Positions 3,456 to 26,142 of a DNA stretch of 32,000 bases are shown piece by piece. A program made the position numbers and the translations under genes. The notes under the pieces are model-generated. The model worked only from the letters and a program-made list of their open reading frames with translations. It was not told the DNA's origin and ran no database searches. Source of the stretch: Wolbachia endosymbiont of Onchocerca ochengi (GTDB taxonomy: Bacteria > Pseudomonadota > Alphaproteobacteria > Rickettsiales > Anaplasmataceae); the NCBI RefSeq assembly GCF_000306885.1, contig NC_018267.1, positions 210,001 through 242,000 of the forward strand, given 5' to 3'. Numbering within the stretch: the first letter of the stretch is position 1; each line of letters begins with the position of its first letter.

Positions 3456-5967
3456 AACTTCCCTGATATTAAAATGATTTAATGTTAATCTAAATAATAG
3501 AGCAGCACAAGTGATCGATACTACCGAAATTAGCATATTCATAGTTATTCAATAACATGTTTTTATAAGTATACAGTTATATTACAAAAGTAGGATTATG
3601 GATACTGAAGTAAATGTTAAAGTAAATCATATAGGTTTCATAAGGAATACTATAGCAGAAATACTCAACTTTTTGATATCCTTCCCTGACTTTATCTACG
3701 CATATTCATCTATACATTATTAGATGATTTGGATTACTTTCATTTTCTGCTTCATCTACACTACCATAACACAATCTTCTACATCTTTATAATTGAGCTA
3801 ATTTCATTTTAGTTTATGCTACTTAATTAATGTAAATAAACATTCTATGATAAATTTACAAACACGGTAGTGATAGATTACAAGCCTAATTAATACTTTA
3901 CGTGCTATAAAAGTGTAAACCTTAATAATATCTTTATCATCATATAAGATAGCTAAATTAACATTTACAAACTTACGATATGGTACACATAGTTTAGAAA
4001 AGTAAAGCTCACTAGTTTACGTACGTACAAAATTGGAGTCCAACACTACAAAGCTATATTTATCTATATATTAGCCTGTTCAATGATCTTATTGAGTTTT
4101 TCTATTACCTATACTGAAAAAGAAACCTGTAAAGATATAAGAAGCCTTTAATAACATTGCTAAGTATATAAAAGCAAAAACATAAAGATTTTGAAATTAT
4201 TGAAAGAAAAATGATAAACTTAATATCAAAATTACACAAAATTCTAGTAATAATTTCAGCACATATTCTACCTTATAAAGAGCAAAAAGCTCCTTTAAGT
4301 CCGGAGATGACGAAGCATCTATTCCTTTTTCTTACCAGGCCACTACAAAATTTCTTTATCATAAAATGCTTTAATCGGACTAGAAAACATTTATTACTCT
4401 AATAAAGAATTTTTGATAACAGTCTCAATATAACAACGATCTAGCGTTAAGTGAAAAAATGCTGAAATTGTATGATATACACAAAAACTGTACTCTCCTA
4501 TTAGAAAATCTAGATCTGATCTATATAAAGAAGGAGAATCATACACACATCAAGAAATATATGATAGCTATAATTTCTCTTAACCGAGATAATATTTTTT
4601 ATGTCTATAATTTAGCTATTACTCTAGACAAGCTTTCAGATTTCAAAATGCTACAACATTCTATTTAAAGATATTAAATATGACAACAAATTCAAAAGAT
4701 ATAAATGAAAAAACACCCATACCTAATGTAGAGGCAAGAGCAAAATTGATAAAACTTTATAAAGATACTTAACAACTCCGTAATTTTAATATTATCTCAA
4801 CTATTCTAGACAAAATATCATAAAATTTAAGAAAAAGTTAATCATTATAAGGTAGCTTCTTTCTAAGAAGACAATACAGTAAGGTATAAATGATAGTACC
4901 AAAGATAACTTACCAACCCGAGCCACCAAATAGAACAACAAAAGAATTATTAAAATTTATTCTAAATCTCTTTAATGCATTAGACAAACTATTTTCATCT
5001 GTTAAAAAGAAAGGAATACCTGCCAAAAATACTGAGATCCAATTTGCAGACGATAAACATATTCATGCTAAAACAAGATGGTTTTGAAAATGATAATCAA
5101 CTAAGCAGCTGCTATACTCTAGTAGCCAAAGAGCTTAGAGAAAAATCAATCGACTCACCACTTATATATGCTATTCAAGTAAACCCTGCTACAAAACAAG
5201 AGATCAAAAATAAAATGACAAATATATTTATGAAGGAATAAATTTCTCAAAGAAGAATAAGCACATCCACAAAGAAATAGATCCTTCTAAAAGAAATAAC
5301 AATTTGTTTAAGTAGAGATTATCCCAATTAGAAAATATGCAATACAACAAGAGCCTATATATGCTAAAATCTCTGTGATAAAGGACGTAAGCTAGCTATA
5401 TATTAGCACAAGAAAGATCAATTATTCAACCAAAGTAAATTCCACTGTAAAAAGATTGGAAAAGAAAGTAAAATCTATAAAAGCTAATTTTAACATTTAC
5501 CATGGATAAGTAAAAGGCAGAAAAAACAACGGAAAGAAAAAAATAAACAAATAAATATAAATCAGAAACTAATACAATAACAGGTTAACAAAGAGGAGTT
5601 GTAGACTACACCACTAGAAAAACTGTTGGCACTAATGTAAAAAAGGTAAAAAATATGAATAAGGTTATGATTTTAACACAAAAATAGAACAATTAAGAGT
5701 AGAGCTTAGAATTCTCAACTCTAAAAAGAGAATTCAATTTATGTTAAATAAAGAATAATAGGAAATTATCGATATAAAATCATCGATACACCACTTTAAT
5801 TGGGTAGTTCACGAGAGTATTAAAAATAAGAGTAGTTATTTTCTTATTAAGAAGAGTCAAAAGATGCAAACTATTATAATGAAGTATATTTTTACAAAGC
5901 AAATGCTTTTTGGTAAGTAAATCGACCTTGCATTTTATCTAGTTATTGATATTCTGAATAAAGAAAT

Positions 5968-13718: not shown

Positions 13719-16370
13719 CTAATTTATCAAAGTAATCGCGCCATGGCAGTGCTTATATTTTTTGCCCGAGTTACAAGGACATTTATCGTTTCTTGAGACT
13801 TTTGGCAAATTGCTTCTTTTAATAAAATGTAACCTCTTACTCACTTCTTGGTTATCTGCTAACTTGAAGTAAGCTAGACGATGAACAGTGATCTCCTTCC
13901 ATTTTTCAAGCATCGACTCAAACATCAAAAAAGCTTCACGTTTAAATTCATTCAGTGGATCTTTCTGCCCCATGGCACGTAAATTTATGCTTTGTCTTAA
14001 CCTCTCTAAAATTGAAAGGTGTTCCCTCCATAAATGATCAAGTGTCATGACCATCACTTGCTTCACTACCTTGTTCCATAAATCTGTAGCGTGTTGACTA
14101 TTGAAATACTCTTCTTTCTCAGCAAAAAACTTCTGTATCTCATCATTTACATAATCCAATGCTTCTTGTTTATTCAAAAATTCTGCTAATACTTCTTTAT
14201 TAAGTGTTATTCCATACCTTGTATAGAACTCTTTAACAAGATCTTCAACATAATCCTCATAATAACCACTTTGCACCACACCTTCTATTATCGCCTTATT
14301 TACTTCACTATATACTTCAAATAAACCATTGATTTCATTCCCTAAGATGTGATTTCTCTGCTCAAAAATAACTTTACGTTGATTATTAATCACGTCATCA
14401 AATTTAAGCAGAGATTTTCGCACATCATAGTTTCGAGCTTCAACTTTTTTCTGTGCCTTCTCAAGCGCCTTATTAAGCCATGGATGATGAATAGCTTCAT
14501 TATCCTTTAGCCCTACCCTTTGTAAAAAGTTTCTCATTCTATCAGAGCCAAATATTCTCATTAAATCATCTTCAAGTGATAAAAAGAACTTAGAAAGTCC
14601 AGGATCACCTTGACGACCAGAACGACCACGTAATTGATCATCTATTCTCCTACTTTCATGTCTCTCAGTTCCAATAACACATAAACCACCAGCTTTTATA
14701 GCAATTTCCCTATCTCTTTTTACTCTTTCAACTATTTCTTGATATTTTTTTTCTCTTTCATCAGTATTTTTTATCTTCTTCAGCTCCACTTTTGCTATCA
14801 TTTCAGCATTTCTGCCAAGCTGAATATCAGTTCCACGTCCTGCCATATTAGTTGCTATAGTAATACTACCTGGTGCTCCAGCTTGTGCTATTATGTACGC
14901 CTCTTGTTCATGATAACGAGCGTTCAGCACTGAATGCTTAAGAGAGTGGCTTCGCAAAAGCGCAGAAAGCTTCTCAGAATTCTCAATACTCACTGTGCCA
15001 ACAAGGATTGGTTGAAGACGTTTGTGGCATTCTTCTACAAATTTTAATACAGCATTAAACTTTTCTTTTTCTGTACCATAAATTTCATCATCAATATCTA
15101 TTCTCTTTACAGGCACATTAGTTGGAATTTTCACTACATTTAGCTTATATATATCACGGAACTCTTCTGCTTCTGTTGCTGCTGTTCCAGTCATACCAGA
15201 GAGCTTATTATACATACGAAAATAATTCTGAAATGTGACTGATGCTAAAGTTTGGTTCTCATGTTGAATCTCAAGATTCTCCTTCGCTTCAAGTGCCTGG
15301 TGAAGACCATCAGAATATCTTCTACTTTCTATGATGCGTCCAGTAAACTCATCGACAATTACTACCTTGCCGTCCTTTATTATATAATCTTTATCAACAG
15401 TAAACAGCTTATGCGCACGTAATGCTTGATCTACATAATGAGTCATTACCATATTGTTGGTATCATACAACGAAGAATCCTCAGAAATGAGATTATATGA
15501 CCTAAGTAGCTCTTCCACACGTGAAATACCATCTTCAGTAAGGAACACCGCCCTACCCTTCTTATCTACCTCATAATCAGAATCAATTAATTTAATAACT
15601 ATTTTATTTATGAGTTTATATATCTGATTATTTTCCTCAATTGGACCAGAAATAATAAGCGGAGTCCGCGCTTCATCAATCAATATGGAATCTACTTCAT
15701 CTACTATCGCATAATTGAAACCTCTCTGAACCATATCTTCTTGAGAAAATTTCATATTATCTCGAAGGTAATCAAAAGCAAGTTCATTGTTTGTTGAATA
15801 TACAATATCTGCACTATAAGCTTCTTTCCTCTCTGCATCTGTCAAATCATTTGTAATAAACGCAACAGAAACCCCAAGAGAATTATATAATTTTCTCATC
15901 CATTCTGCATCACGTTTTGCAAGGTAGTCGTTAACAGTTACAACATGTACACCTTTTCCCTCTAAAGAATTAAGGTATGCAGCTAAAGTTGCAACAAGCG
16001 TCTTTCCCTCTCCTGTTTTCATTTCTGATATCATGCCATTATGAAGGACCATTCCACCAATTAGCTGAACATCAAAGTGTCTCATGTTAAGAAACCTACG
16101 AGAGGCTTCACGTACAACTGCAAAAGCAGGTATGAGAAGGCTATTTAATGTTTTCCCATTCTTTAATTCCTGTTTAAACTCCTCAGTTTTACTAGCAAGC
16201 TCCTCATCAGATAGGCTCTGCATTTTCGGCTCTAATGCATTTATTTGTTGAACAATTTTTCCAAAAGACTTTATTATCCTCCTATTTGTCATTCCCTTTA
16301 CAAAAAGGAGCAACAATATAAAAGTGAAAAACATAAGAATAGCTGTTAAAATTACAGCAAAATCTGACAT
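13719..16370 (-). CDS. secA: Preprotein translocase ATPase SecA
   Basis: 883-aa maximal ORF. Walker [13 protein letters not shown]-like [19 protein letters not shown], and the C-terminal zinc motif [14 protein letters not shown]. The start is ambiguous: ATGs at 16370, 16334 and 16292. The conserved SecA N-terminus only begins around ...[20 protein letters not shown]. Confidence 0.95.
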
Positions 16371-16764
16371 AAACTTAATTAACGCCCATTAAATATGAGA
16401 TTATATTACCAAACACAACCTACAGCAATGACATATTCGATTTAGAGAATCTTTACTTACATATTAAGGCAGTGAATAAAATAACTTACTGATCCTTTGC
16501 TTGGAAAGCTTTTCATCAATATATAAAGAATATGTTACATTATTTTAGATATTTAATAATCTTTAATTTTTATATAAAATGAAGTTTTTAGTAGAATGTA
16601 AATAGAAAATGAACAGTTTTAAAAAACTTAACAATTCTATATTTAAAGAAGAGAATCAGCTGACCAACAGATAATTAAGGTCATAAACTTTAAGTAAAAT
16701 TATTAATACTATATCTACCCCTCATAAACTAAGCAGTAAAATTGATTTTTGGTTAGCATTAACC

Positions 16765-19160
16765 ATGAAAGGCTTTGAAGTTTTTGATGATTATTTCTTT
16801 TGAAGATAAAAAGACAAGAAAACAAATCAAAAACTATCTCAGTTTAAGCTAAGTACTACAATACACGTTGTGCCTCAAAAATACTATACTTTTAAAGATT
16901 TGTTTATTAATGGAAATAATAGAAAGCTACAAAAAAAGAAGATTTTAGGTTACACAAATACTTTTTGGATCCTACCTTTAAAATCAAGCAAAACCTAAAT
17001 GCAAGAACAGGGGTACTATACTCGTCATTTATACTAATGTCAATGTGAATTTTTAAAAAGGCACAGAAAAGCAAAGTAGTATAGTGATACTATAGAAGCA
17101 TCCTGGAAGAGTTAAAGTTAATAAATGAACATTTAAAATATTTATGAAGATCAAAAAGAAACATGCTATAAGATAAAAAATCATACTGAGCTAAAAATAC
17201 TTCAGTTGTAGTAGTGATGGTGAAATAGAAAATTCTCTTACTTAGATTAAGGTTTGTAGTTAATCAACCTAATCACTCAAAATTAGATATTATTATTCAA
17301 GAAGAAGCATGAAACACAGACAAAATATCAAATAAAACAAGACATTGACACAGTTTTTGATTTTGCGCGCGAGAAAGTAGAGAGTAATGGGAAGAATGTA
17401 AGAGGCAAAGTTTTCTTACTTAACGAGAAAAGATGATTATTTTAAGAAAATTATAAACTATTTTCATAGTCTCAAATCTAAAGAAAATCTAGATGAATTT
17501 TAGCAAACCTTTATCTGAAACTAGAATTTTATTGATAGAAAAATACTACTAGATAAAATAGAAAAATACCTGGATGCTGCTGATACAGCAACATTAGTTA
17601 TTCTCACAGATTAAGCAGAAACCGGATAAAACACAATTAGCATTAGAATCTTGTTTAGAGTAAATTCTAAGAATATAAAGGAATAATTTGACTTGATACA
17701 AAAGATAGAAATAAATGCATTATTCAATGAGTACATCAAATTAGGGTGTAAACCAAGCATTATTTATGGTTATGAAGAAAACGTCTTTGAAGAAGATCAT
17801 GTTAAGTGTGTTAAAAGTTAGCTAGAATAGCCTCAATGTACCAGTGGTTACTGACATGCTATAATTTTCCCCTAATTACAAAAATACAGTAGGCTTACTT
17901 CCTACAAAAAAGACATTATTAACTTCCCGTTATAAATTTAGCTGGACAAACCCATAGAACACTAATTCTAGTGATGCTTTTAAACCTTAAGAGTCAAGTA
18001 GCCATATTCTTTAAATACTAGAAATAAAAGGAGAAAGACTAGACACAATTCAAGTAGATGCATTAGCAAAGATATTAAGTTATTACCTTTAACTTTAGCC
18101 TAAGCAAATGCCCACAAAGAAAACGCATATAAATATTTCAGACTATTTGAAAATTATAATGATAGAAAACAAACTTTATCGTCTGATAAAACATCGTTTA
18201 AAACATTCCATTCAGGTCTAATAGAGAGAATGCGGTAATAGTGTATAAAAAGCATACAGTAGAAAACAACAAAAAAAGATCCTTATATTTACTGATAGTC
18301 AACTGATTTACTGCTCGTACTTATTTAAGTAACAACTCTATCTCTCAGGTTTGACTAAAAATCTCCACTGATAATCAAAAAAATAACTCTTCTTCAGAAA
18401 CTTTCTATAAAGAATAAGGAATACTAATAAGCTATTCTATATTAACTATCAAAAAAGATTATAGCATGTTTAGTACGCATACTTAGTTCAGAAGATAACA
18501 AGACTAAAGTCAGAGAAGCGGAAAAACAAAAAAGAAACAAAAACTGTCTTTCAAAAAAAAGTTTCCCTTATATCCCTTATAATAGGGATAAATTGAAGAT
18601 TGTGCTAAGAAATAACAACTATTATCATCATGTTTAGATGTATTCCTATTTAAATATAGATAATTAACCAAAAGACAATTTTCTAGAAAAGAAAAAAGAG
18701 AGAAGAATTATCTTAAAAATTTACTAACATGAATTGATGATAGATACTCTGATTTAAGCAATCCTAAAAAGCAAAAGGAGTTGCTTGAATTAGCTCCTTA
18801 GTAGATGATGAGAAACATTACGATCTTGATCATTTCTAAATTGCTATTACACTGAAAAGCCTTGATATATATATATATATATATATTAATTAGGGTTTTT
18901 AAGTAACCATCAGAAAGCAAAAACGTCATTTAAACAGGCCTTGACAATTAAAGAAAAACACTATGAACCTCAATCATTTTGAAGTTGCTAAGTTACTCGC
19001 AAATTTCAGTACCGTTTACGGTGCTCTGGATAATTTTCAAAAACCAAAAGAATTGTTCAAACAGTCCTTACCTATTCTTAAAAAGATCATATACCTGATA
19101 GCCCAAAAGTTGTTAAATTATTGGTGAACTAGACGATATTTAGGTTTTTAGCAACATTGA
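16765..19160 (+). pseudogene. Decayed STAND NTPase: unknown N-terminal region + NB-ARC ATPase + 42-residue (KLC-type, TPR_10/12-like) TPR array
   Basis: The motifs are readable in correct order and spacing despite dozens of stops and frameshifts.
- Pre-P-loop and Walker A: NFIDRKILLDKIEKYL...LVILTD*AETG*NT (17525-17635).
- Walker B: WLLTCYNFP (17845-17871).
- RNBS-B: GLLPTKKTLLTSRYKFSW (17892-17945).
- GLPL: ALAKILSY/LPLTLA*ANAH (18060-18115).
- At least 4 repeats of ~126 nt, for example NHFEVAKLLANFSTVYGALDNFQKPKELFKQSLPILKK (18972-19085).
The outer boundaries are approximate. Confidence 0.7.
18865..18886. repeat. (AT)11 dinucleotide microsatellite
   Basis: 22 nt of uninterrupted ATAT... 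sit inside one TPR unit of the STAND pseudogene. Confidence 0.95.
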
Positions 19161-19181: not shown

Positions 19182-20330
19182 TCACACTCCCAAAATTAAT
19201 CTGTTTGGATCTTCTATATAATTTTTTATTTTAACAAGGAAAGTTACTGCTCCTTTGCCATCAACTATTTTGTGATCGTAAGAAAGGGCAATGTACATTA
19301 TAGGCCTAATTTCAATTGAGTTACCCACAACAACTGGCCTGTTTTGTATTGAATGCATCCCAAGTATACCAGACTGTGGAGGATTTATTATCGGAGTAGA
19401 AAAAAGTGAACCATATATCCCACCGTTTGAAATGGTAAATGTTGCACCTTCCATTTCTGACACCTGTAACTTACCTTCGCGGGCTCTTTTACCAAGGGCA
19501 GCTAAAGTTAACTCAATTTCCGCAAATGATATCTGATCAGCACTCCGAATAACTGGCACAACAAGACCCTTATCAGTGCCAACAGCAACACCTATGTCAT
19601 AATAATGTTTATATATAATTTCATCGCCTAAAATTTCAGCGTTAATTTCAGGAATTTCTTTCAGAGCTTGCACCGCAGCCTTTATAAAAAAGGACATGAA
19701 ACCAAGCTTTATTCCATATTTCTTTTCGAAAATTTCTTTATATTTTGCTCTTAGATTCATTACGCTTTGCATGTCAATCTCATTAAATGTAGTCAGTGTT
19801 GCAGCAGTGTTTTGTGAAGCCTTCAAACGAGCAGCAATTACTTGCCTTATCTTACTCATTTTTATTCGCTTTTCTCTTCTCTCTCCACTCATTACACTTT
19901 CTGGCAGTTTATATATTGCAGGCTGTTCAGTTTTGCTTATATGGGCTACATCTGCTTTCGTTATTCTGCCTCCCATCCCAGTTCCTTTGACACTTTTTGC
20001 ACTGATTGCATTCTCTTCCATAATTTTACGAGCTGATGGAGCGTCTCTTATAACAGGGATTTCACTTTTATCTTCTTGCACCTCCCTTATAGAAAGCCTT
20101 GCTAATAATTGACCTGGACTTATTATATCATTTTCTTTTACAAGAAATTCAGTTATTTCCCCTGAAGCTTCTGCAGTTAATTCAAGTGCTGCTTTGTCAG
20201 TTTCAACTTCAAAGATTAAGTCATCTACTTTTACTGCTTCACCAATATTTCTTTTTATTTTGACTATACCTTCCGTAACTGATTCACCACCAAGAATCTC
20301 TGGCGCCCTGATTTCTATAATTTTACCCAT
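19182..20330 (-). CDS. sucB: Dihydrolipoamide succinyltransferase (E2 of 2-oxoglutarate dehydrogenase)
   Basis: Lipoyl domain (EVETDKAALEL), peripheral-subunit-binding domain (PSARKIMEEN...GTGMGGRITKADV), and catalytic domain with SYDHKIVDG. The ORF track starts at 20345. I prefer the ATG at 20330 (MGKIIEIRAP...) because GGAAGG lies 7 nt upstream. Confidence 0.92.
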   Translation of the reverse strand: MGKIIEIRAPEILGGESVTEGIVKIKRNIGEAVKVDDLIFEVETDKAALELTAEASGEITEFLVKENDIISPGQLLARLSIREVQEDKSEIPVIRDAPSARKIMEENAISAKSVKGTGMGGRITKADVAHISKTEQPAIYKLPESVMSGERREKRIKMSKIRQVIAARLKASQNTAATLTTFNEIDMQSVMNLRAKYKEIFEKKYGIKLGFMSFFIKAAVQALKEIPEINAEILGDEIIYKHYYDIGVAVGTDKGLVVPVIRSADQISFAEIELTLAALGKRAREGKLQVSEMEGATFTISNGGIYGSLFSTPIINPPQSGILGMHSIQNRPVVVGNSIEIRPIMYIALSYDHKIVDGKGAVTFLVKIKNYIEDPNRLILGV

Positions 20331-22104
20331 AAAACAACCTTCCATAACAACTTGCTATAACTTTATACATGAAAAGAAACGTATAATAAACTAACAAATT
20401 TATTTAGGATTAAAAAGAAGCCTATTACAACTTGCTTTTTACTAGTCTAATTTACGCATACTAATCTCCTATCAAGATTACTTTCAAAAGACAAAAGATT
20501 ACTTACAGCTTTTAAACGAATTCCTTCACTTGAAATTAATAATTCCATACTCTTCGCTAACATTAAACATTGTATTTTATACGCTTTCCTAAGTAATAGT
20601 GTAAAACATCACTTCTTGTATAGCCCAGCTACACGTTACAGATCCATGATCATACACTAAAACACCACAAAATTTTCTTTCAAATCAACTATTAATCTTC
20701 TCTCTTTCACATTATCAAACACTGAAAAACTATTATCATGATAAGATGTTTAATCATATAAAATCCAGTGTCCACATACCTATGGAAGCAATTTATCCAT
20801 CTTTAAGGAAAAAACTACCACAATAGAAGGCTCATACAGGTGAAAAATTACTCTGAATATCCCCTCTTGCTTGATAAATAAAATCGTGGATTATATAACT
20901 AGCTTTTTACCTACCAATATTCTTTATCTTCAACCACACTCCCATCAAATAACATTTAACATCAATAAATTTTCATTCACCTCACTAAAACATATACCAA
21001 ATGGATAAATGTAGAATGACCCTTGATCTTCAGAACACACTAACAGATGAGTGTATGTACAATCACCCATTTTAAGGTAAAACAGAAAATCTTAATAAGT
21101 ATAAACTACTTCCCTTTTTACCTTGCTCTTTGCTAATAACATAACTCCTAGTTAAATCTCCTGAAAGCTTATATCAAGAAAAGAAGCTCATAGTAAACTA
21201 ACCTCCAGTTTAAAGTCAAGAGTAAATCAGGGAAAGAAGAGTTGTCAATTCTTAGTAAAAAAGTAGCTGTTATATAGTAGCCTACAAAGATCACGCAAAT
21301 TTATATTTTCAAATTACATAATATCATCGCAAAAATAACCTTACTATATAATATTTTAAACGTTTTAAAGCTTAAGCTTGATGTTATTATGAATATAAAT
21401 TTTAAAATTATAAAATATAATAAACATTAACACAAAGAAACAAACAACAGAAATTTTCATACAGAATCAGGTAGAATTACAAAATCCGCTTCTATATTAT
21501 TGCCTTTTTAGAAAGTAGGTAAGCTTTCTACAGCAATAAAATTATCTAATATAATAGATGCACTGATTATAAACATCAACTTCTCGAATAACACTCAAGT
21601 TCATTCTATATATGATAATATCTTCGAACACAACCAAATCCATGAAGAAGCACAAGACAGAATATATAATATTGGACAAATTATGCTTCAGACAATAGAA
21701 GCTTATCCAATTCATCAAAAAATTATATATTTATTGACAAATTGATGGAAGATAGTAAATACAACACAAAAATACATAACTCAGTAATAGAACTTAACAA
21801 AAGAATGAATACAAGAATTCTTCCTATAGTGCTCAAATGTGAGCTATATATATACTACAAAAGGGCATTAAATTAAAAAGACAGAGGAAAAATAGGAAAG
21901 CAACCAATATAAGTAGCGTTATAAAAAAATTTAGAACTCATAATTTATTTATACCATCACCTAATGTCATAGAGATAGAGAATTCAAACATGAGTATAAG
22001 GGAAGTAGTTGAGAAAATAACATATCAGGTGCACAGACTTAGCCAAATTGATAGAGTTTACATAAAAGGTTAACTTACAATAGGCTCATATATCTAGGCT
22101 CATT

Positions 22105-22698: not shown

Positions 22699-23562
22699 TA
22701 TTTAAGTTTACTATAGAGCTTTACAAATATTACAGTAAAGGCACCATTCATCTATAACTATAACATTCACTAAAATTATTATCAAATCAAACGCTACATA
22801 TAATGCAGTAATTAACAAGAGCATTTCCTGAGAAAACTTAGGATTCTCCTCAAGAAATAGATAACATTACTATAATTCCTCCTGCTGAACCGCAACGATA
22901 GCAAACTTAAATAAAAATAGAAAAGGAAAGTCACATAGTCTATTATATAACGCACAACCAGAAGTAATTATAATCAATTATATTATAATAAAAGAAAGCA
23001 ACCCACCCACAGGTAAAAGCTAGTAGTTATCGACACAATAAATAATACTATATCAAATTGCTTCACGTTTTTTACTCTCTGGCAAGAGCAAGCGGCAAGA
23101 TTGTATTACCAAACAGTACTCATTGCAGTAATAAATGCTCTAAGCATCATATTGCCTATACTAGTTACTTAACTTGGGATTTTGAATGAAGTTGCCGCTC
23201 CACACAAGAGAAAAATATAGAAGTAAACAAATGTTATATATAATAACAAAAATTACTGAGTAATCTTTTGAAGATTACAAGATAAAACCTGGTCATGCTG
23301 CCTTTTAAAGTAAGACCGAGTATAAATACCTGAATAACTGAAGTCAAAAACACTTTCAAATAAACTAAATCAAATCTGATATTTCGTATGAAAGTTTTTC
23401 ACTTATCCTCAATAGAAATACAAATATCACTATGCTGTATATAAATCCATAAACAAGAACATAAAAGTTAGAAAGCAGTACGGGTAGCTTAAACGACCAT
23501 GAAGAGTAATTGTTTTTATATATTATATTTTATATAAAATAAGTGTTTTGTAGATAAAACGC

Positions 23563-23817
23563 CTAATCAAGTAGGCGATTAAACTTGAAGCTAGATTCAA
23601 CATGAAAATCGTTATAATAAGCAACAATATAAATCTTATAGCTTATTACTAAGATTGTTAGCACTGCTAATATTAACGTAAAGACAATAAAAGGCATCAT
23701 AAACAGCAAAATTCCTTTGATGCTTAAATTTAACAAGCACAAAAGGGTTTTCACTTCTACTAGAACTAAATAACCAAAAAACATAACTAAAATAATATCA
23801 GCAAGTAATGTTAACAA
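23563..23817 (-). CDS. Hypothetical small hydrophobic ORF (possibly only a relic of a membrane-protein gene)
   Basis: 84-aa ORF, almost entirely hydrophobic with 2-3 TM-like stretches. I found no recognisable RBS or homology. It lies in the middle of a 3.4-kb decayed spacer. Confidence 0.2.
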   Translation of the reverse strand: MLTLLADIILVMFFGYLVLVEVKTLLCLLNLSIKGILLFMMPFIVFTLILAVLTILVISYKIYIVAYYNDFHVESSFKFNRLLD

Positions 23818-25139
23818 TTACAACATTTCTTAATATAGCAATATTATTAAGGAGATAATGGGTAAACCAGCCATTAAGTAAAACAAAACTACCTGAACCA
23901 CTATATATACTTATTAAAAACTTAACTTTAATCAATCAAAACCATGTAATCAGAGTTAGTTTTGAACTTTTTAATGGTTCCTTCAGAATTAAATTTTACT
24001 ATATCGAATAGCATGAAGTGCTTATAAAAAGAGAGTTTTCAAGGCTTAGAGTATATAATGTTAGTTTGTTCGTACAACACCTTAACCACTATTAAAACAT
24101 GTCAAGCTTAACCTGTGAGAACCAGAGCAGTAAGTAATACCTGCATTTGTGTAATGTGTGTTGTTTACTTCATGATCATACTTTTCCCCAAATTTACTAC
24201 CACTACCATATAAAAAAAATGCAATCAAGATCAAACAACTCTAATTTCAAGCTAAAATTTCAGTGTAGTAGTTGATTACAGCATTTACACCCTTTAGGAG
24301 TTTCACTTGCACAATCAGTTAGATTTTTCCTCATAAATTTACTAGTTAAGCAGCAGTAAAATTTATATCATCTGATAGACTATTTTTACAGGAAAGATTA
24401 GCAGCAACTAGATCGCTATGTTGTAAGTCATTTTCTCTTGTACATAATTAAGTCTCAGTTGAAAAGCTATTAAATCACAGGAGATATATAGCTTATTATC
24501 TGTTGCTTTAACTTTAATTTAAGTCTATTATAACCATAATAAATATTGGGTTTAATCTAAAAGATCATGTTTTTATCATACCTAACACTATTATTCTTCT
24601 TTTCATCATCACGTAAATTTGCATAGTTTATCCGGCAACCACTTACTCTACAAGCAGCTGTATAATTTTTTGAAGTATTGGTTAGTATACTCTAGCTAAT
24701 TAAGCTTTCTTACCATATTCAATCAACCCAAGTTCCAGACTTTTAATGATAAATACTATTCTTCATGTCTAATTTTCCTATGTCTAACATTTTTAGGTTT
24801 ACAACATTAAAACCCATTTGAGTATTTGAATAAACTTGCTGTAAATAAAGAAAGAGAAGTACAAATAACTCGAAATCTTATCTTTAGGCTGAATATTAAA
24901 AGAATCCTTGTTAAAAGGATCACTAAATCTCAAATCTATTTTTTTATCTAGTCCACATAAAATATTCCCTTGTCCAGAATTACTCTAGCATTAATACCAT
25001 TTTGTGAAAACAATACCAAAAGCAGTACAGCTAAGCAATAACTCAACTTTACAGATAAACTTAAGTCTTTATATAAAAACATAAGTTTAAGCTCAACATA
25101 GATAAAAAACAACTTCCAGAAGGCTACTTTGGCTAAATG

Positions 25140-25375
25140 TTAAGCTTTACTGCCAGTTTCTAAGCCATATTTTCCTAAACAACTCCTTACATCATCAGCT
25201 ACTTTTGCACTTAAAACACTGATTAATGTCTTATCAAGTAGACTCTCGTTTTTATGTTTCGGTAAATCTCTTGCACCTTAATTGAATCCTAAAATTGATA
25301 AAGTTTTTTTTCTTTATCTTGACGAATAGATATCATTAAATCATCTTTCTTTTTTACAGTTATAAAATCTTCCAC
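25140..25375 (-). pseudogene. Relic of an unidentified gene (3' ~79 codons) with a homopolymer frameshift and one in-frame stop
   Basis: The minus-strand read is VEDFITVKKKDDLMISIRQDKEKK. A frameshift follows in an A8 run (T8 at 25304-25311 on +). It then reads TLSILGFN*GARDLPKHKNESLLDKTLISVLSAKVADDVRSCLGKYGLETGSKA*. The composition is protein-like, but I cannot assign a family. Confidence 0.3.
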
Positions 25376-26102
25376 ACTTTATACTCTATACAGCAAATTT
25401 ATAAGCATAATGGAATTATAGCTAAATGTTAAACCACGGCACTTATTATGTGAGAAACATAAACTACAAACCTGCTACTATCTTTTGATAGAAATAGAGC
25501 CTTTCAAGCTTTTCCATTTACTCAATTTACCTGACATTTTATCAACAGCCAAAGTAACTGATGTGCTAATTAATGTAGCAACCCAAATAAAAGCAGTATA
25601 AATATAATTAAAAATTATATTAACAAATTTAGCTATTCTTGCAACTATGATCTTCTGCTTTGCCTGGTACACTTCCCAAGTAGCGTATCAACAAGCTCGA
25701 ATAACCCAAGTAATAGTTGTTTGTTATCAACTAATCTCTTTACTATTAAATATAACAAATATACAAATATTGAAATATAAAGATTGTAGAACTATAAAAG
25801 TGGTGCACTATAATCAATTCTACTATAAGATACATAATAGGCATACTTTTCATCACTTTTAAAACTGTGCAAACACTAAAAGCAAATTTCACTTTAGACC
25901 ACGACACTATCAATACAGTGGATAAATTTATAGGAATAGTTTTATATAATCTTGCTATTATTTTTTCTACAGAGAAATATTTCTATATTTAGCATTTTTC
26001 TAAAATTCTTATAAATCTCTGACATTTTCATTTTCAATGAATATACAATTATTGTTGCATCATTTAAAATGTATTAATTACATGTTGTACAAAAGCATAT
26101 AT

Positions 26103-26117
26103 TACGATACTATCGTA
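26103..26117. promoter_or_regulatory. 15-bp palindrome TACGATA-C-TATCGTA in the sodB leader (candidate operator, overlapping a possible -10)
   Basis: Inverted 7-mers separated by 1 nt, 26 nt upstream of the sodB ATG. A possible TTGTAC(26085)-17 nt-TACTAT(26108) promoter overlaps it. The SD-like motifs AGGAGG (26117) and AGAGG (26133) follow. Confidence 0.2.
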
Positions 26118-26142
26118 GGAGGTTAAGAATAAAGAGGTTAGT

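Follow-up and report, generated by a model that had tools for sequence, protein, structure and literature searches.

What lies in the apparently empty interval between secA and sucB in the Wolbachia endosymbiont of Onchocerca ochengi? In the window analysed here (the whole 32,000-nucleotide stretch of contig NC_018267.1, positions 210,001 to 242,000, to which all coordinates without further label refer), these two genes enclose a gap whose longest surviving open reading frame (ORF) has 55 codons, and stop codons are similarly dense in all six frames of the gap (69–85 per ~936 codons). A sequence-only reading had seen in this gap the ruin of a large NB-ARC and TPR STAND NTPase with an N-terminal effector, a proposal that is borne out by intact orthologues at the same chromosomal position and by the Pfam and PDB-profile matches of these orthologues. 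Overall, we are highly confident that positions 16596–19143 of the forward strand are a non-functional, long-dead pseudogene of a nuclease–NB-ARC–TPR STAND protein, extending from the ancestral ATG to the ancestral TAG.

The extent of the relic was established with our own local protein-to-DNA aligner, which allows frameshifts (BLOSUM62, gap 11/1, frameshift 12, stop −4). As a reference, we used the database protein P0003, an intact Wolbachia-type protein (1022 aa) whose sole designation is “tetratricopeptide repeat protein”. It aligned to 16596–19129 (+) over 822 codons with 55.6% identity, 27 in-frame stops and 30 frameshifts, reaching a score of 1596, while 200 dinucleotide-preserving shuffles scored 41.1 ± 4.6 with a maximum of 56 (z ≈ 337). 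The reverse complement scored 34 with P0003, reversed proteins scored 37–44, and all runs with reverse complements or reversed proteins gave 33–44. Other references scored lower: 1312 for the syntenic protein of locus L008 and 279 for the L003-type protein; tblastn with the latter matched nothing but the gap, on its + strand, with a summed E of 5e-18 coming from the C-terminal third alone. Similarity is not limited to the TPRs, spanning the non-repetitive nuclease and NTPase modules as well. The alignment starts at the ATG at 16596, matching Met1 of the orthologue, while past its local end a frame-shifted “ELDDI*” at 19126–19143 (the asterisk marking a stop, here and below) corresponds to the C-terminus of P0001 and P0015 and places the ancestral stop codon at 19141–19143. 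Since both ends are recognisable, the relic occupies nearly the whole gap between secA and sucB; the sequence-only reading had found the correct gap and strand, but its bounds of 16765–19160 have to be replaced by 16596 and 19141–19143. When the raw + strand frames were submitted to Pfam, all three with X in place of stops, nothing relevant came up because the gene switches frame too often for unstitched frames to be informative. Homology to an intact gene thus comes together with multiple disabling lesions, as is expected of a pseudogene.

Decisive for this interpretation was the comparison of the interval with related genomes, where the same slot holds an intact homologous gene. Loci L003, L004, L008, L013, L015 and L016 each have an orthologue, either intact or with light damage, placed between sucB and secA and oriented opposite to secA; in several arthropod Wolbachia, the gene is divergent from secA and convergent with sucB. 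Uninterrupted ORFs, located in this slot or else just upstream of secA on the opposite strand, amount to 900 aa in L003 (7053–9755, immediately upstream of secA in Wolbachia of Cantharis cryptica), 866 aa in L004 (1528–4125) and 1135 aa in L008 (1548–4951, protein P0001). ORFs orthologous to sucB border the slot in L002, L004, L006, L008, L013 and L015, and in all Wolbachia loci examined the neighbours were either sucB and secA or insertion sequence (IS) elements. Copies in three arthropod-associated assemblies are lightly broken. In different Wolbachia, the slot is occupied by two gene lineages, which share ~41% identity overall and 32% in the N-terminal domain; the window relic aligns end to end with the L008/P0003 type and thus belongs to it.

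Three further observations concern this slot. The divergence of the two lineages is unusually deep for a syntenic gene, the neighbouring genes being 86–90% identical. At ~4750–4770 (−) of L008, a T7 homopolymer shifts the frame of the otherwise intact orthologue at about codon 66, while P0001, a protein of 1135 aa from the same strain, reads through as though the tract were T8; an error of the assembly and real slippage in the homopolymer are both conceivable. Finally, the sucB side of the slot in L003 (5313–7043) has been replaced by IS3-family transposase ORFs, IS4-like fragments and lepA, indicating that the locus is also a point of rearrangement in some strains.

The order of modules in the orthologues is tripartite, and the relic is colinear with it: a nuclease-like part (residues 1–300), an NB-ARC part (~309–714) and TPRs from ~715 onwards. 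In the window, the relic of the N-terminal effector domain of ~300 aa covers 16596–17503 (P0003 residues 1–300). It is followed at 17528–18744 by the remains of the NB-ARC NTPase module with its helical and winged-helix (DUF7779) subdomains (P0003 residues 309–714), and then by the C-terminal TPR sensor at 18745–19143. All fragments quoted in the sequence-only reading were found by three-frame translation at the positions given there, and they are colinear on the intact homologue. The fragment quoted for the P-loop region, NFIDRKILLDKIEKYLDAADTATLV, matches NFVGREALLDKIEECLDASDTATLV of the homologue. The P-loop itself (Walker A, 17609–17633) is destroyed: GLGGIGKT, which is invariant in the profile alignment A3 of the central module, has become “TD*AETG”, a 1-nt insertion and “KT”, with a TAA at 17612 and a frameshift at 17627, so the pattern GxxGxG followed by K and T or S can no longer be found. 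A broken Walker A had been recognised before, but the stop after “AETG”, which had been placed on the P-loop lysine, arises from the 1-nt insertion, and the lysine codon is kept one base downstream. By the same token, the fragment “NTISIRILFR” reported to follow is out of frame, the true frame after the P-loop reading KTQLALE; likewise, the quoted KENAYKYFRLFEN is an out-of-frame reading of what is in fact KKTHINISDYLK, flanked by two frameshifts.

The remaining NTPase motifs are mutated yet recognisable, and they follow each other in canonical order and spacing. The Walker B remnant WLLTCYN (17845–17865), recognised as Walker B by the sequence-only reading, derives from the ancestral WLLVCDN with Asp replaced by Tyr. 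LLTSRY (17916–17933), the RNBS-B or sensor-1 arginine motif, can still be read and lies in a region where T141 and R143 are invariant in A3; here the quoted LLPTKKTLLTSRYKFSW stands for LLPTKGGKILLTSRYTFGW of the homologue. The GLPL-type remnant LPLTLA*A (18083–18106) goes back to HLPLALAQA, follows a frameshift just upstream at 18081, has a TAA at 18101 exactly where the sequence-only reading saw a lost Gln, and lies in a region where L195, P196, L197 and A198 are invariant in A3; together with the preceding VDALAKILS, it matches VDILAKTLGHLPLALAQA. All three remnants are colinear with WLLVCDN, LLTSRY and LPLALAQA of P0003.

The TPR fragments quoted earlier proved to be the C-terminal TPR units of the homologue. 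About three and a half 42-residue units of the TPR_10/12 type survive, as compared to 6–9 in intact orthologues. The proposed 126-nt periodicity holds exactly for the last two of them, while the others are distorted by indels and by a (TA)11 microsatellite at 18865–18886, a perfect repeat inside a TPR unit (Tandem Repeats Finder: period 2, 11 copies). Neither Tandem Repeats Finder nor direct-repeat searches of the relic detected a 126-nt array at the DNA level, the TPR units being discernible at the protein level only.

Which protein family did the gene belong to? Intact orthologues carry NB-ARC, DUF7779 (the winged-helix region) and many TPR_10/TPR_12 units according to Pfam. With NB-ARC (PF00931, gathering threshold 23.5 bits), P0003 scores 27.1, L003 33.1 and L004 35.6 bits, while P0001 stays below the threshold at 20.1; the TPR_10 and TPR_12 matches (PF13374, PF13424) of the orthologues range from 65 to 238 bits, with E down to 1e-72. 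Profile A3, built from 14 sequences of the central module and searched against PDB, retrieved AfsR (E 1.8e-18), NRC1 (1.2e-14), Roq1 (7e-14), ZAR1 (2e-10) and Apaf-1 (4e-10). Such a profile was needed, as a phmmer search of PDB with a single sequence of the NB-ARC module yielded nothing. Matches to these solved NB-ARC structures make the membership of the family in NB-ARC secure.

The NB-ARC/TPR part also falls into a broad bacterial family, NCBIfam NF040586 (“FxSxx-COOH system TPR protein”), with matches in free-living bacteria. P0003, P0001 and P0010 score 339, 350 and 347 bits against the cut-off of 300, while the L003 type remains under it at 230 bits; the match begins at residue ~302 of the Wolbachia proteins. 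The odd RefSeq product name found in some annotations is explained by this “equivalog” model scoring above its cut-off. However, no FxSxx-COOH partner genes were present beside any Wolbachia locus examined, so the name is probably an over-extension in this case. In Rickettsia and “Candidatus Tisiphia”, proteins P0052–P0071 combine NB-ARC and DUF7779 with a LuxR-type helix-turn-helix domain (PF00196), at ~35% identity over the NTPase module; the same NTPase core has therefore been joined to varied partner domains across Rickettsiales.

We would like to comment separately on the N-terminal ~300 codons, which the sequence-only reading had assigned to an effector or sensor-partner domain. An effector is upheld, and the domain itself was identified through a structure model and Foldseek. 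A profile search with the domain collected 67 relatives, mostly from Wolbachia and other Rickettsiales, none of them with an assigned domain. The AlphaFold model of the intact domain (predicted template-modelling score, pTM, 0.82; mean predicted local distance difference test score, pLDDT, 77) consists of an α-β-β-β core, followed by helices and then a β-strand. Foldseek matched it against PDB with probability 1.00 in all of the following cases: Cap4 of CBASS (7yib, E 4.8e-7; also 6wam and 6vm6), HamA of Hachiman (8zue_A, 7.2e-5), LmuA of Lamassu (9ux7_C, 1.2e-4; 9nxx; 9hr5) and the N-terminal nuclease of Avs3 (8dgc_A, 3.5e-4). Cap4, HamA, LmuA and the Avs3 nuclease are PD-(D/E)xK DNA endonucleases of the Cap4/DUF4297 type and act as effectors in bacterial defence systems. 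In an alignment of 25 diverse homologues, F62, D63, D64, Q82, K84, H85, K118 and Y119 are invariant, giving the motif FDD…QxKH with the acidic residues and the (E/Q)xK element typical of such enzymes; D63, D64, Q82 and K84 would superpose on the catalytic residues of Cap4. According to the model, the domain is thus a Cap4-like PD-(D/E)xK nuclease fold with putative catalytic activity, and these fold matches point to an ancestral protein of nuclease–NB-ARC–TPR architecture. Remains of the putative nuclease motif lie at 16777–16854, where FDD is still legible in “FEVFDDYFF”, while QxKH has turned into “V*AKY”, its Gln having become TAA at 16845 and its His a Tyr.

Relatives of the N-terminal domain are also found fused to ankyrin repeats in bacteria (P0138, P0139), as well as in gene models of Daphnia (P0144, P0145, P0170, P0184), Eufriesea mexicana (P0151), and a beetle and a moth (P0182, P0183). 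Such occurrences could stem from transfer between symbiont and host, from contamination or from a broader extent of the family.

When did the gene die? Across the interval, the window and its sister strain, uncultured Wolbachia WOLB0982 (L001), are 92% identical, 15 small indel blocks apart. Eighteen of the 27 stops of the relic are present in L001 as the identical codon, and at two further positions both strains have stops with different codons. Stops common to both indicate that inactivation predates the split of the strains and, as L001 was assembled independently, rule out assembly errors as their cause. In this single pairwise comparison, the relic diverges by 8.0%; third codon positions differ by 6.3% in secA and by 8.9% in sucB, and first and second positions by 0.7–3.7%, a pattern consistent with neutral drift. 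Having been inactivated before the window strain and L001 separated, the gene has since drifted, acquiring stops of the C/G→T/A type, indels of 1–2 nt and one microsatellite.

The same slot has decayed elsewhere too: in wStur, the dead gene can be traced over its full length, through 18 stops and 13 frameshifts; the Cruorifilaria symbiont (wCtub) keeps a 395-codon remnant with 20 stops, the Dirofilaria symbiont (wDimm) a 167-codon remnant, most of the gene having been deleted while secA and sucB were kept, and the Dipetalonema symbiont (wDcau) a weak trace. The earlier suggestion that the lineage discarded such a system is therefore supported, as far as the loss is concerned, by lesions that are old and shared and by parallel decay in other filarial strains; the purpose of the lost system, for instance against phages, is a matter of analogy and is taken up below. 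Filarial Wolbachia have highly degraded genomes that differ from those of insect strains mainly in prophage genes and genes of repeat-motif proteins (PMC3514676). Our relic resembles the pseudogenes described there, e.g., in wOo, in that the gene is intact in insect strains but disrupted by many stop codons and shifts of frame in a reduced genome of the filarial type, and it falls in the very class of repeat-motif proteins that separates the two groups (PMC3514676). There is no difference in principle, the relic merely having gone uncalled in the annotation of GCA_902646625.1. In the literature on this locus or family in Wolbachia, we found only the NB-ARC/NACHT proteins of the prophage eukaryotic association module, which are different genes.

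Could the interval nevertheless be something other than a dead gene? One might suppose that it still works through recoding, by read-through and programmed frameshifts, or through small functional fragments, given that a 54-codon ORF at 18963–19127 encodes a single clean TPR unit and that ~98% of the gene models of wOo, pseudogenes included, had transcriptome reads (PMC3514676). We consider this very improbable: all three stop codons are represented among the 27 stops, a further 30 frameshifts fall within the same 2.5 kb, and the flanking genes use the standard code; both Walker motifs are ruined, as is the QxK motif of the nuclease; the divergence from the sister strain proceeds at the third-position rate, with lesions differing between the strains; and in wOo no protein came from pseudogenes, even highly transcribed ones (PMC3514676). 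Practically negligible is the chance that we are looking at fortuitous similarity or faulty assembly. The window has a G+C content of only ~30%, and K/E/L-rich, TPR-like peptides arise easily in AT-rich DNA; moreover, GCA_902646625.1 is metagenome-assembled, and the L008 assembly carries the likely homopolymer error or slip described above. Yet the alignment score exceeds those of the shuffles by far and on one strand only, the similarity to P0003 covers the nuclease and NTPase modules too, the shared stops and most of the indels recur in an independent assembly that is 8% divergent over the relic, and secA and sucB are intact on the same contig, so we regard both explanations as refuted. Improbable, albeit with slightly more in its favour, is a recruitment of the decayed sequence for a non-coding role as a small RNA, a terminator or a regulatory region of either flanking gene. 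Relative to L001, the 225 bp adjoining secA are better conserved than the relic (96.4% vs. 92.0%), and the 3′ end of the relic lies 38 bp from the stop codon of sucB. However, Rfam gave only a chance mir-1277 match on the TA repeat (E 0.62), the body of the relic diverges at about the third-position rate, and wDimm has lost most of it while retaining both neighbours. Nothing suggests that the relic now does anything beyond spacing secA and sucB.

What, then, might the protein have done while it was alive? Judging from the orthologues, it was a protein of ~850–1100 aa, predicted to combine a nuclease, an NB-ARC STAND module with helical and winged-helix subdomains, and an array of 42-residue TPR_10/12 units. 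Avs3 and Avs7 are activated when their TPR sensor captures a phage protein: this relieves autoinhibition, the ATP-bound NTPase assembles into a tetramer, and the Cap4 domains brought together in it cut DNA (PMC12803255). As the modules stand in the same order in the Wolbachia family, we take an Avs-like mechanism to be the most likely one: the TPR array would bind a trigger protein, binding would lift autoinhibition, the NTPase would oligomerise with bound ATP, and the clustered N-terminal nucleases would cut DNA. The outcome would be abortive infection or self-destruction, most plausibly directed against a phage such as WO. A defence role of this kind, e.g., against phage WO, is plausible but unproven. 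It is tempting to go one step further and to suppose that the slot gene is a chromosomal immune receptor (NB-ARC clade, Avs-like, with a Cap4-type nuclease) sensing proteins of WO or other mobile elements, that its ~41%-identical alleles are the product of an arms race, that its independent decay in every filarial strain examined reflects relaxed selection after the loss of WO, and that its N-terminal domain represents a new branch of Cap4/DUF4297 passed to, or shared with, arthropod genomes. As a whole, we put this scenario forward tentatively, considering it somewhat doubtful. An origin of the gene as prophage cargo was rejected, as P0003 found no tblastn counterpart among 50,697 phage records and the neighbours are housekeeping genes.

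Several results weigh against our reading, of both the relic and its former function. The frame-corrected translation of the relic gives no Pfam match to NB-ARC; its TPR_12 score of 28.6 bits is just under the cut-off of 30.1, albeit with an E of 1.6e-6, and TPR_10 reaches 13 bits. The profile search proposed in the sequence-only reading was therefore answered for the TPRs by a near miss and for NB-ARC in the negative, and the domain assignment rests on 56%-identical intact homologues and on the colinear, legible motifs. The first ~300 residues have no relevant Pfam family at E ≤ 10, DUF4297/Cap4 included, and no match in a sequence-profile search of PDB, and the fold matches are moderate, with template-modelling scores normalised to the query of 0.42–0.49 and high root-mean-square deviations. 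PADLOC v2 assigned no Avs or other defence model to the intact orthologues, returning only a generic TPR model and, with 22 bits, an AbiTi match located in the TPRs, and it is by analogy that the family is linked to phage defence. Finally, several arthropod Wolbachia in which phage may be present (L006, L013, L016) have broken copies as well, so loss of the gene is not specific to phage-free lineages.

The main rival accepts the pseudogene but sees its ancestor as a host-directed effector acting on the eukaryotic cell instead of an anti-phage receptor, a role that has been proposed for the NB-ARC, NACHT, TPR and ankyrin proteins of the WO eukaryotic association module (PMC5062602). Literature tying NB-ARC/TPR-type proteins of Wolbachia to the manipulation of host cell death (PMC5062602, PMC6133264) speaks for it, as does the occurrence of N-terminal-domain homologues in ankyrin-repeat fusions and in gene models from Daphnia and insects; decay in obligate mutualists of nematodes would also suit the loss of a host-manipulation factor. 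On the other hand, the gene is chromosomal, located among housekeeping genes outside the prophage module and absent from the phage records, it shares its architecture with Avs3 and Avs7, bacterial receptors of solved structure, and its NB-ARC/TPR part belongs to the family NF040586, free-living bacteria included. We are therefore inclined to regard a host-directed ancestor as unlikely, and we retain the Avs-like immune receptor as our working reading.

How close would such a receptor be to known systems? With Avs3 and Avs7 (PDB 8dgc; PMC12803255), the orthologues share the order of Cap4-like nuclease, STAND NTPase and TPR sensor. Unlike them, the Wolbachia proteins have an NTPase that Pfam and PDB-profile matches assign to NB-ARC, no Avs model of PADLOC fits them, the protein of ~1000 aa is about half the size of Avs3 (2028 aa), its sensor is a regular array of kinesin-light-chain-type TPR_10/12 units, its host is an obligate intracellular symbiont, and the copy in the window is dead. 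AfsR (PDB 8k60) and the NF040586 proteins have NB-ARC, winged-helix and TPR parts in common with it, as reflected in the scores given above. However, AfsR has an N-terminal SARP DNA-binding domain and no nuclease, while compared to NF040586 proteins, the Wolbachia family has an extra nuclease-like N-terminal domain and sucB and secA as neighbours instead of FxSxx partners. Cap4, HamA and LmuA, with the DUF4297 fold, remain the best structural matches of the N-terminal domain, sharing the αβββαβ core and the invariant acidic pair with QxK, whereas the Wolbachia domain is without Pfam or PDB sequence match and its putative nuclease is fused to an NB-ARC NTPase; theirs is a SAVED fusion or has a helicase or SMC partner. 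Finally, the NB-ARC, NACHT, TPR and ankyrin proteins of the eukaryotic association module of WO (PMC5062602) come from the same genus, likewise combine STAND NTPases with repeats and have been discussed in the context of programmed cell death. They differ in lying in prophage regions and in carrying ankyrin, latrotoxin-CTD, OTU or CE-protease modules, whereas the slot gene is chromosomal, has a nuclease-like N-terminus and finds no match in the phage collection.

The genes flanking the relic are both intact. secA (13719–16370, −; 883-aa ORF) is transcribed divergently from it, and the 225 bp between them (16371–16595) presumably contain, judging from their position, the promoter and 5′ region of secA. 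The SecA protein carries the SecA Pfam domains, is identical to that of GCA_902646625.1, an assembly whose annotation leaves the sucB–secA interval empty, and has 98% identity to that of WOLB0982, 90% to that of wDimm (Dirofilaria immitis symbiont) and 78–90% to those of other Wolbachia. By secA, the closest complete relative within the sampled genomes is a filarial strain. sucB (19182–20345, −; 387-aa ORF) is convergent with the relic, with 38 bp between both stop codons; the protein of its longest ORF has no exact match on record, its start codon probably differing. Coding density is low across the window: 3543–5966, 20346–22104 and 22699–26142 are without ORFs of at least 110 codons and may hold further gene relics. 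A second unannotated pseudogene lies at 21299–22070 (+), aligning over 244 codons at 71% identity, with one stop and five frameshifts (score 780 vs. 39 on the other strand), to an intact 249-aa ORF of the Dirofilaria symbiont located between sucB and tsaB (L002, 6122–6871, −).

Our results demonstrate that 2.5 kb of unannotated “intergenic” DNA are a relic that can be followed from start to stop, providing a clean example of gene decay in an endosymbiont. To the previous description, we add its extent, intact syntenic orthologues, an identity for the N-terminal domain, and an old, drift-like decay paralleled in the Wolbachia of nematodes. A pseudogene in a filarial-type Wolbachia genome is in itself ordinary, and the intact family is the more interesting lead. 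It has been poorly annotated, being called only “tetratricopeptide repeat protein” or, misleadingly, “FxSxx-COOH system”, while its architecture is that of bacterial NLR-like immune receptors equipped with a DNA-cutting effector; Wolbachia may thus possess an NLR-like immune receptor that has so far escaped the databases of defence systems. If a defence against WO is indeed what was lost, the intact or freshly broken copies of insect strains, set against the old corpses of the nematode strains examined, would inform us about phage pressure on symbiont genomes and might bear on aspects of Wolbachia–phage biology relevant to vector control.

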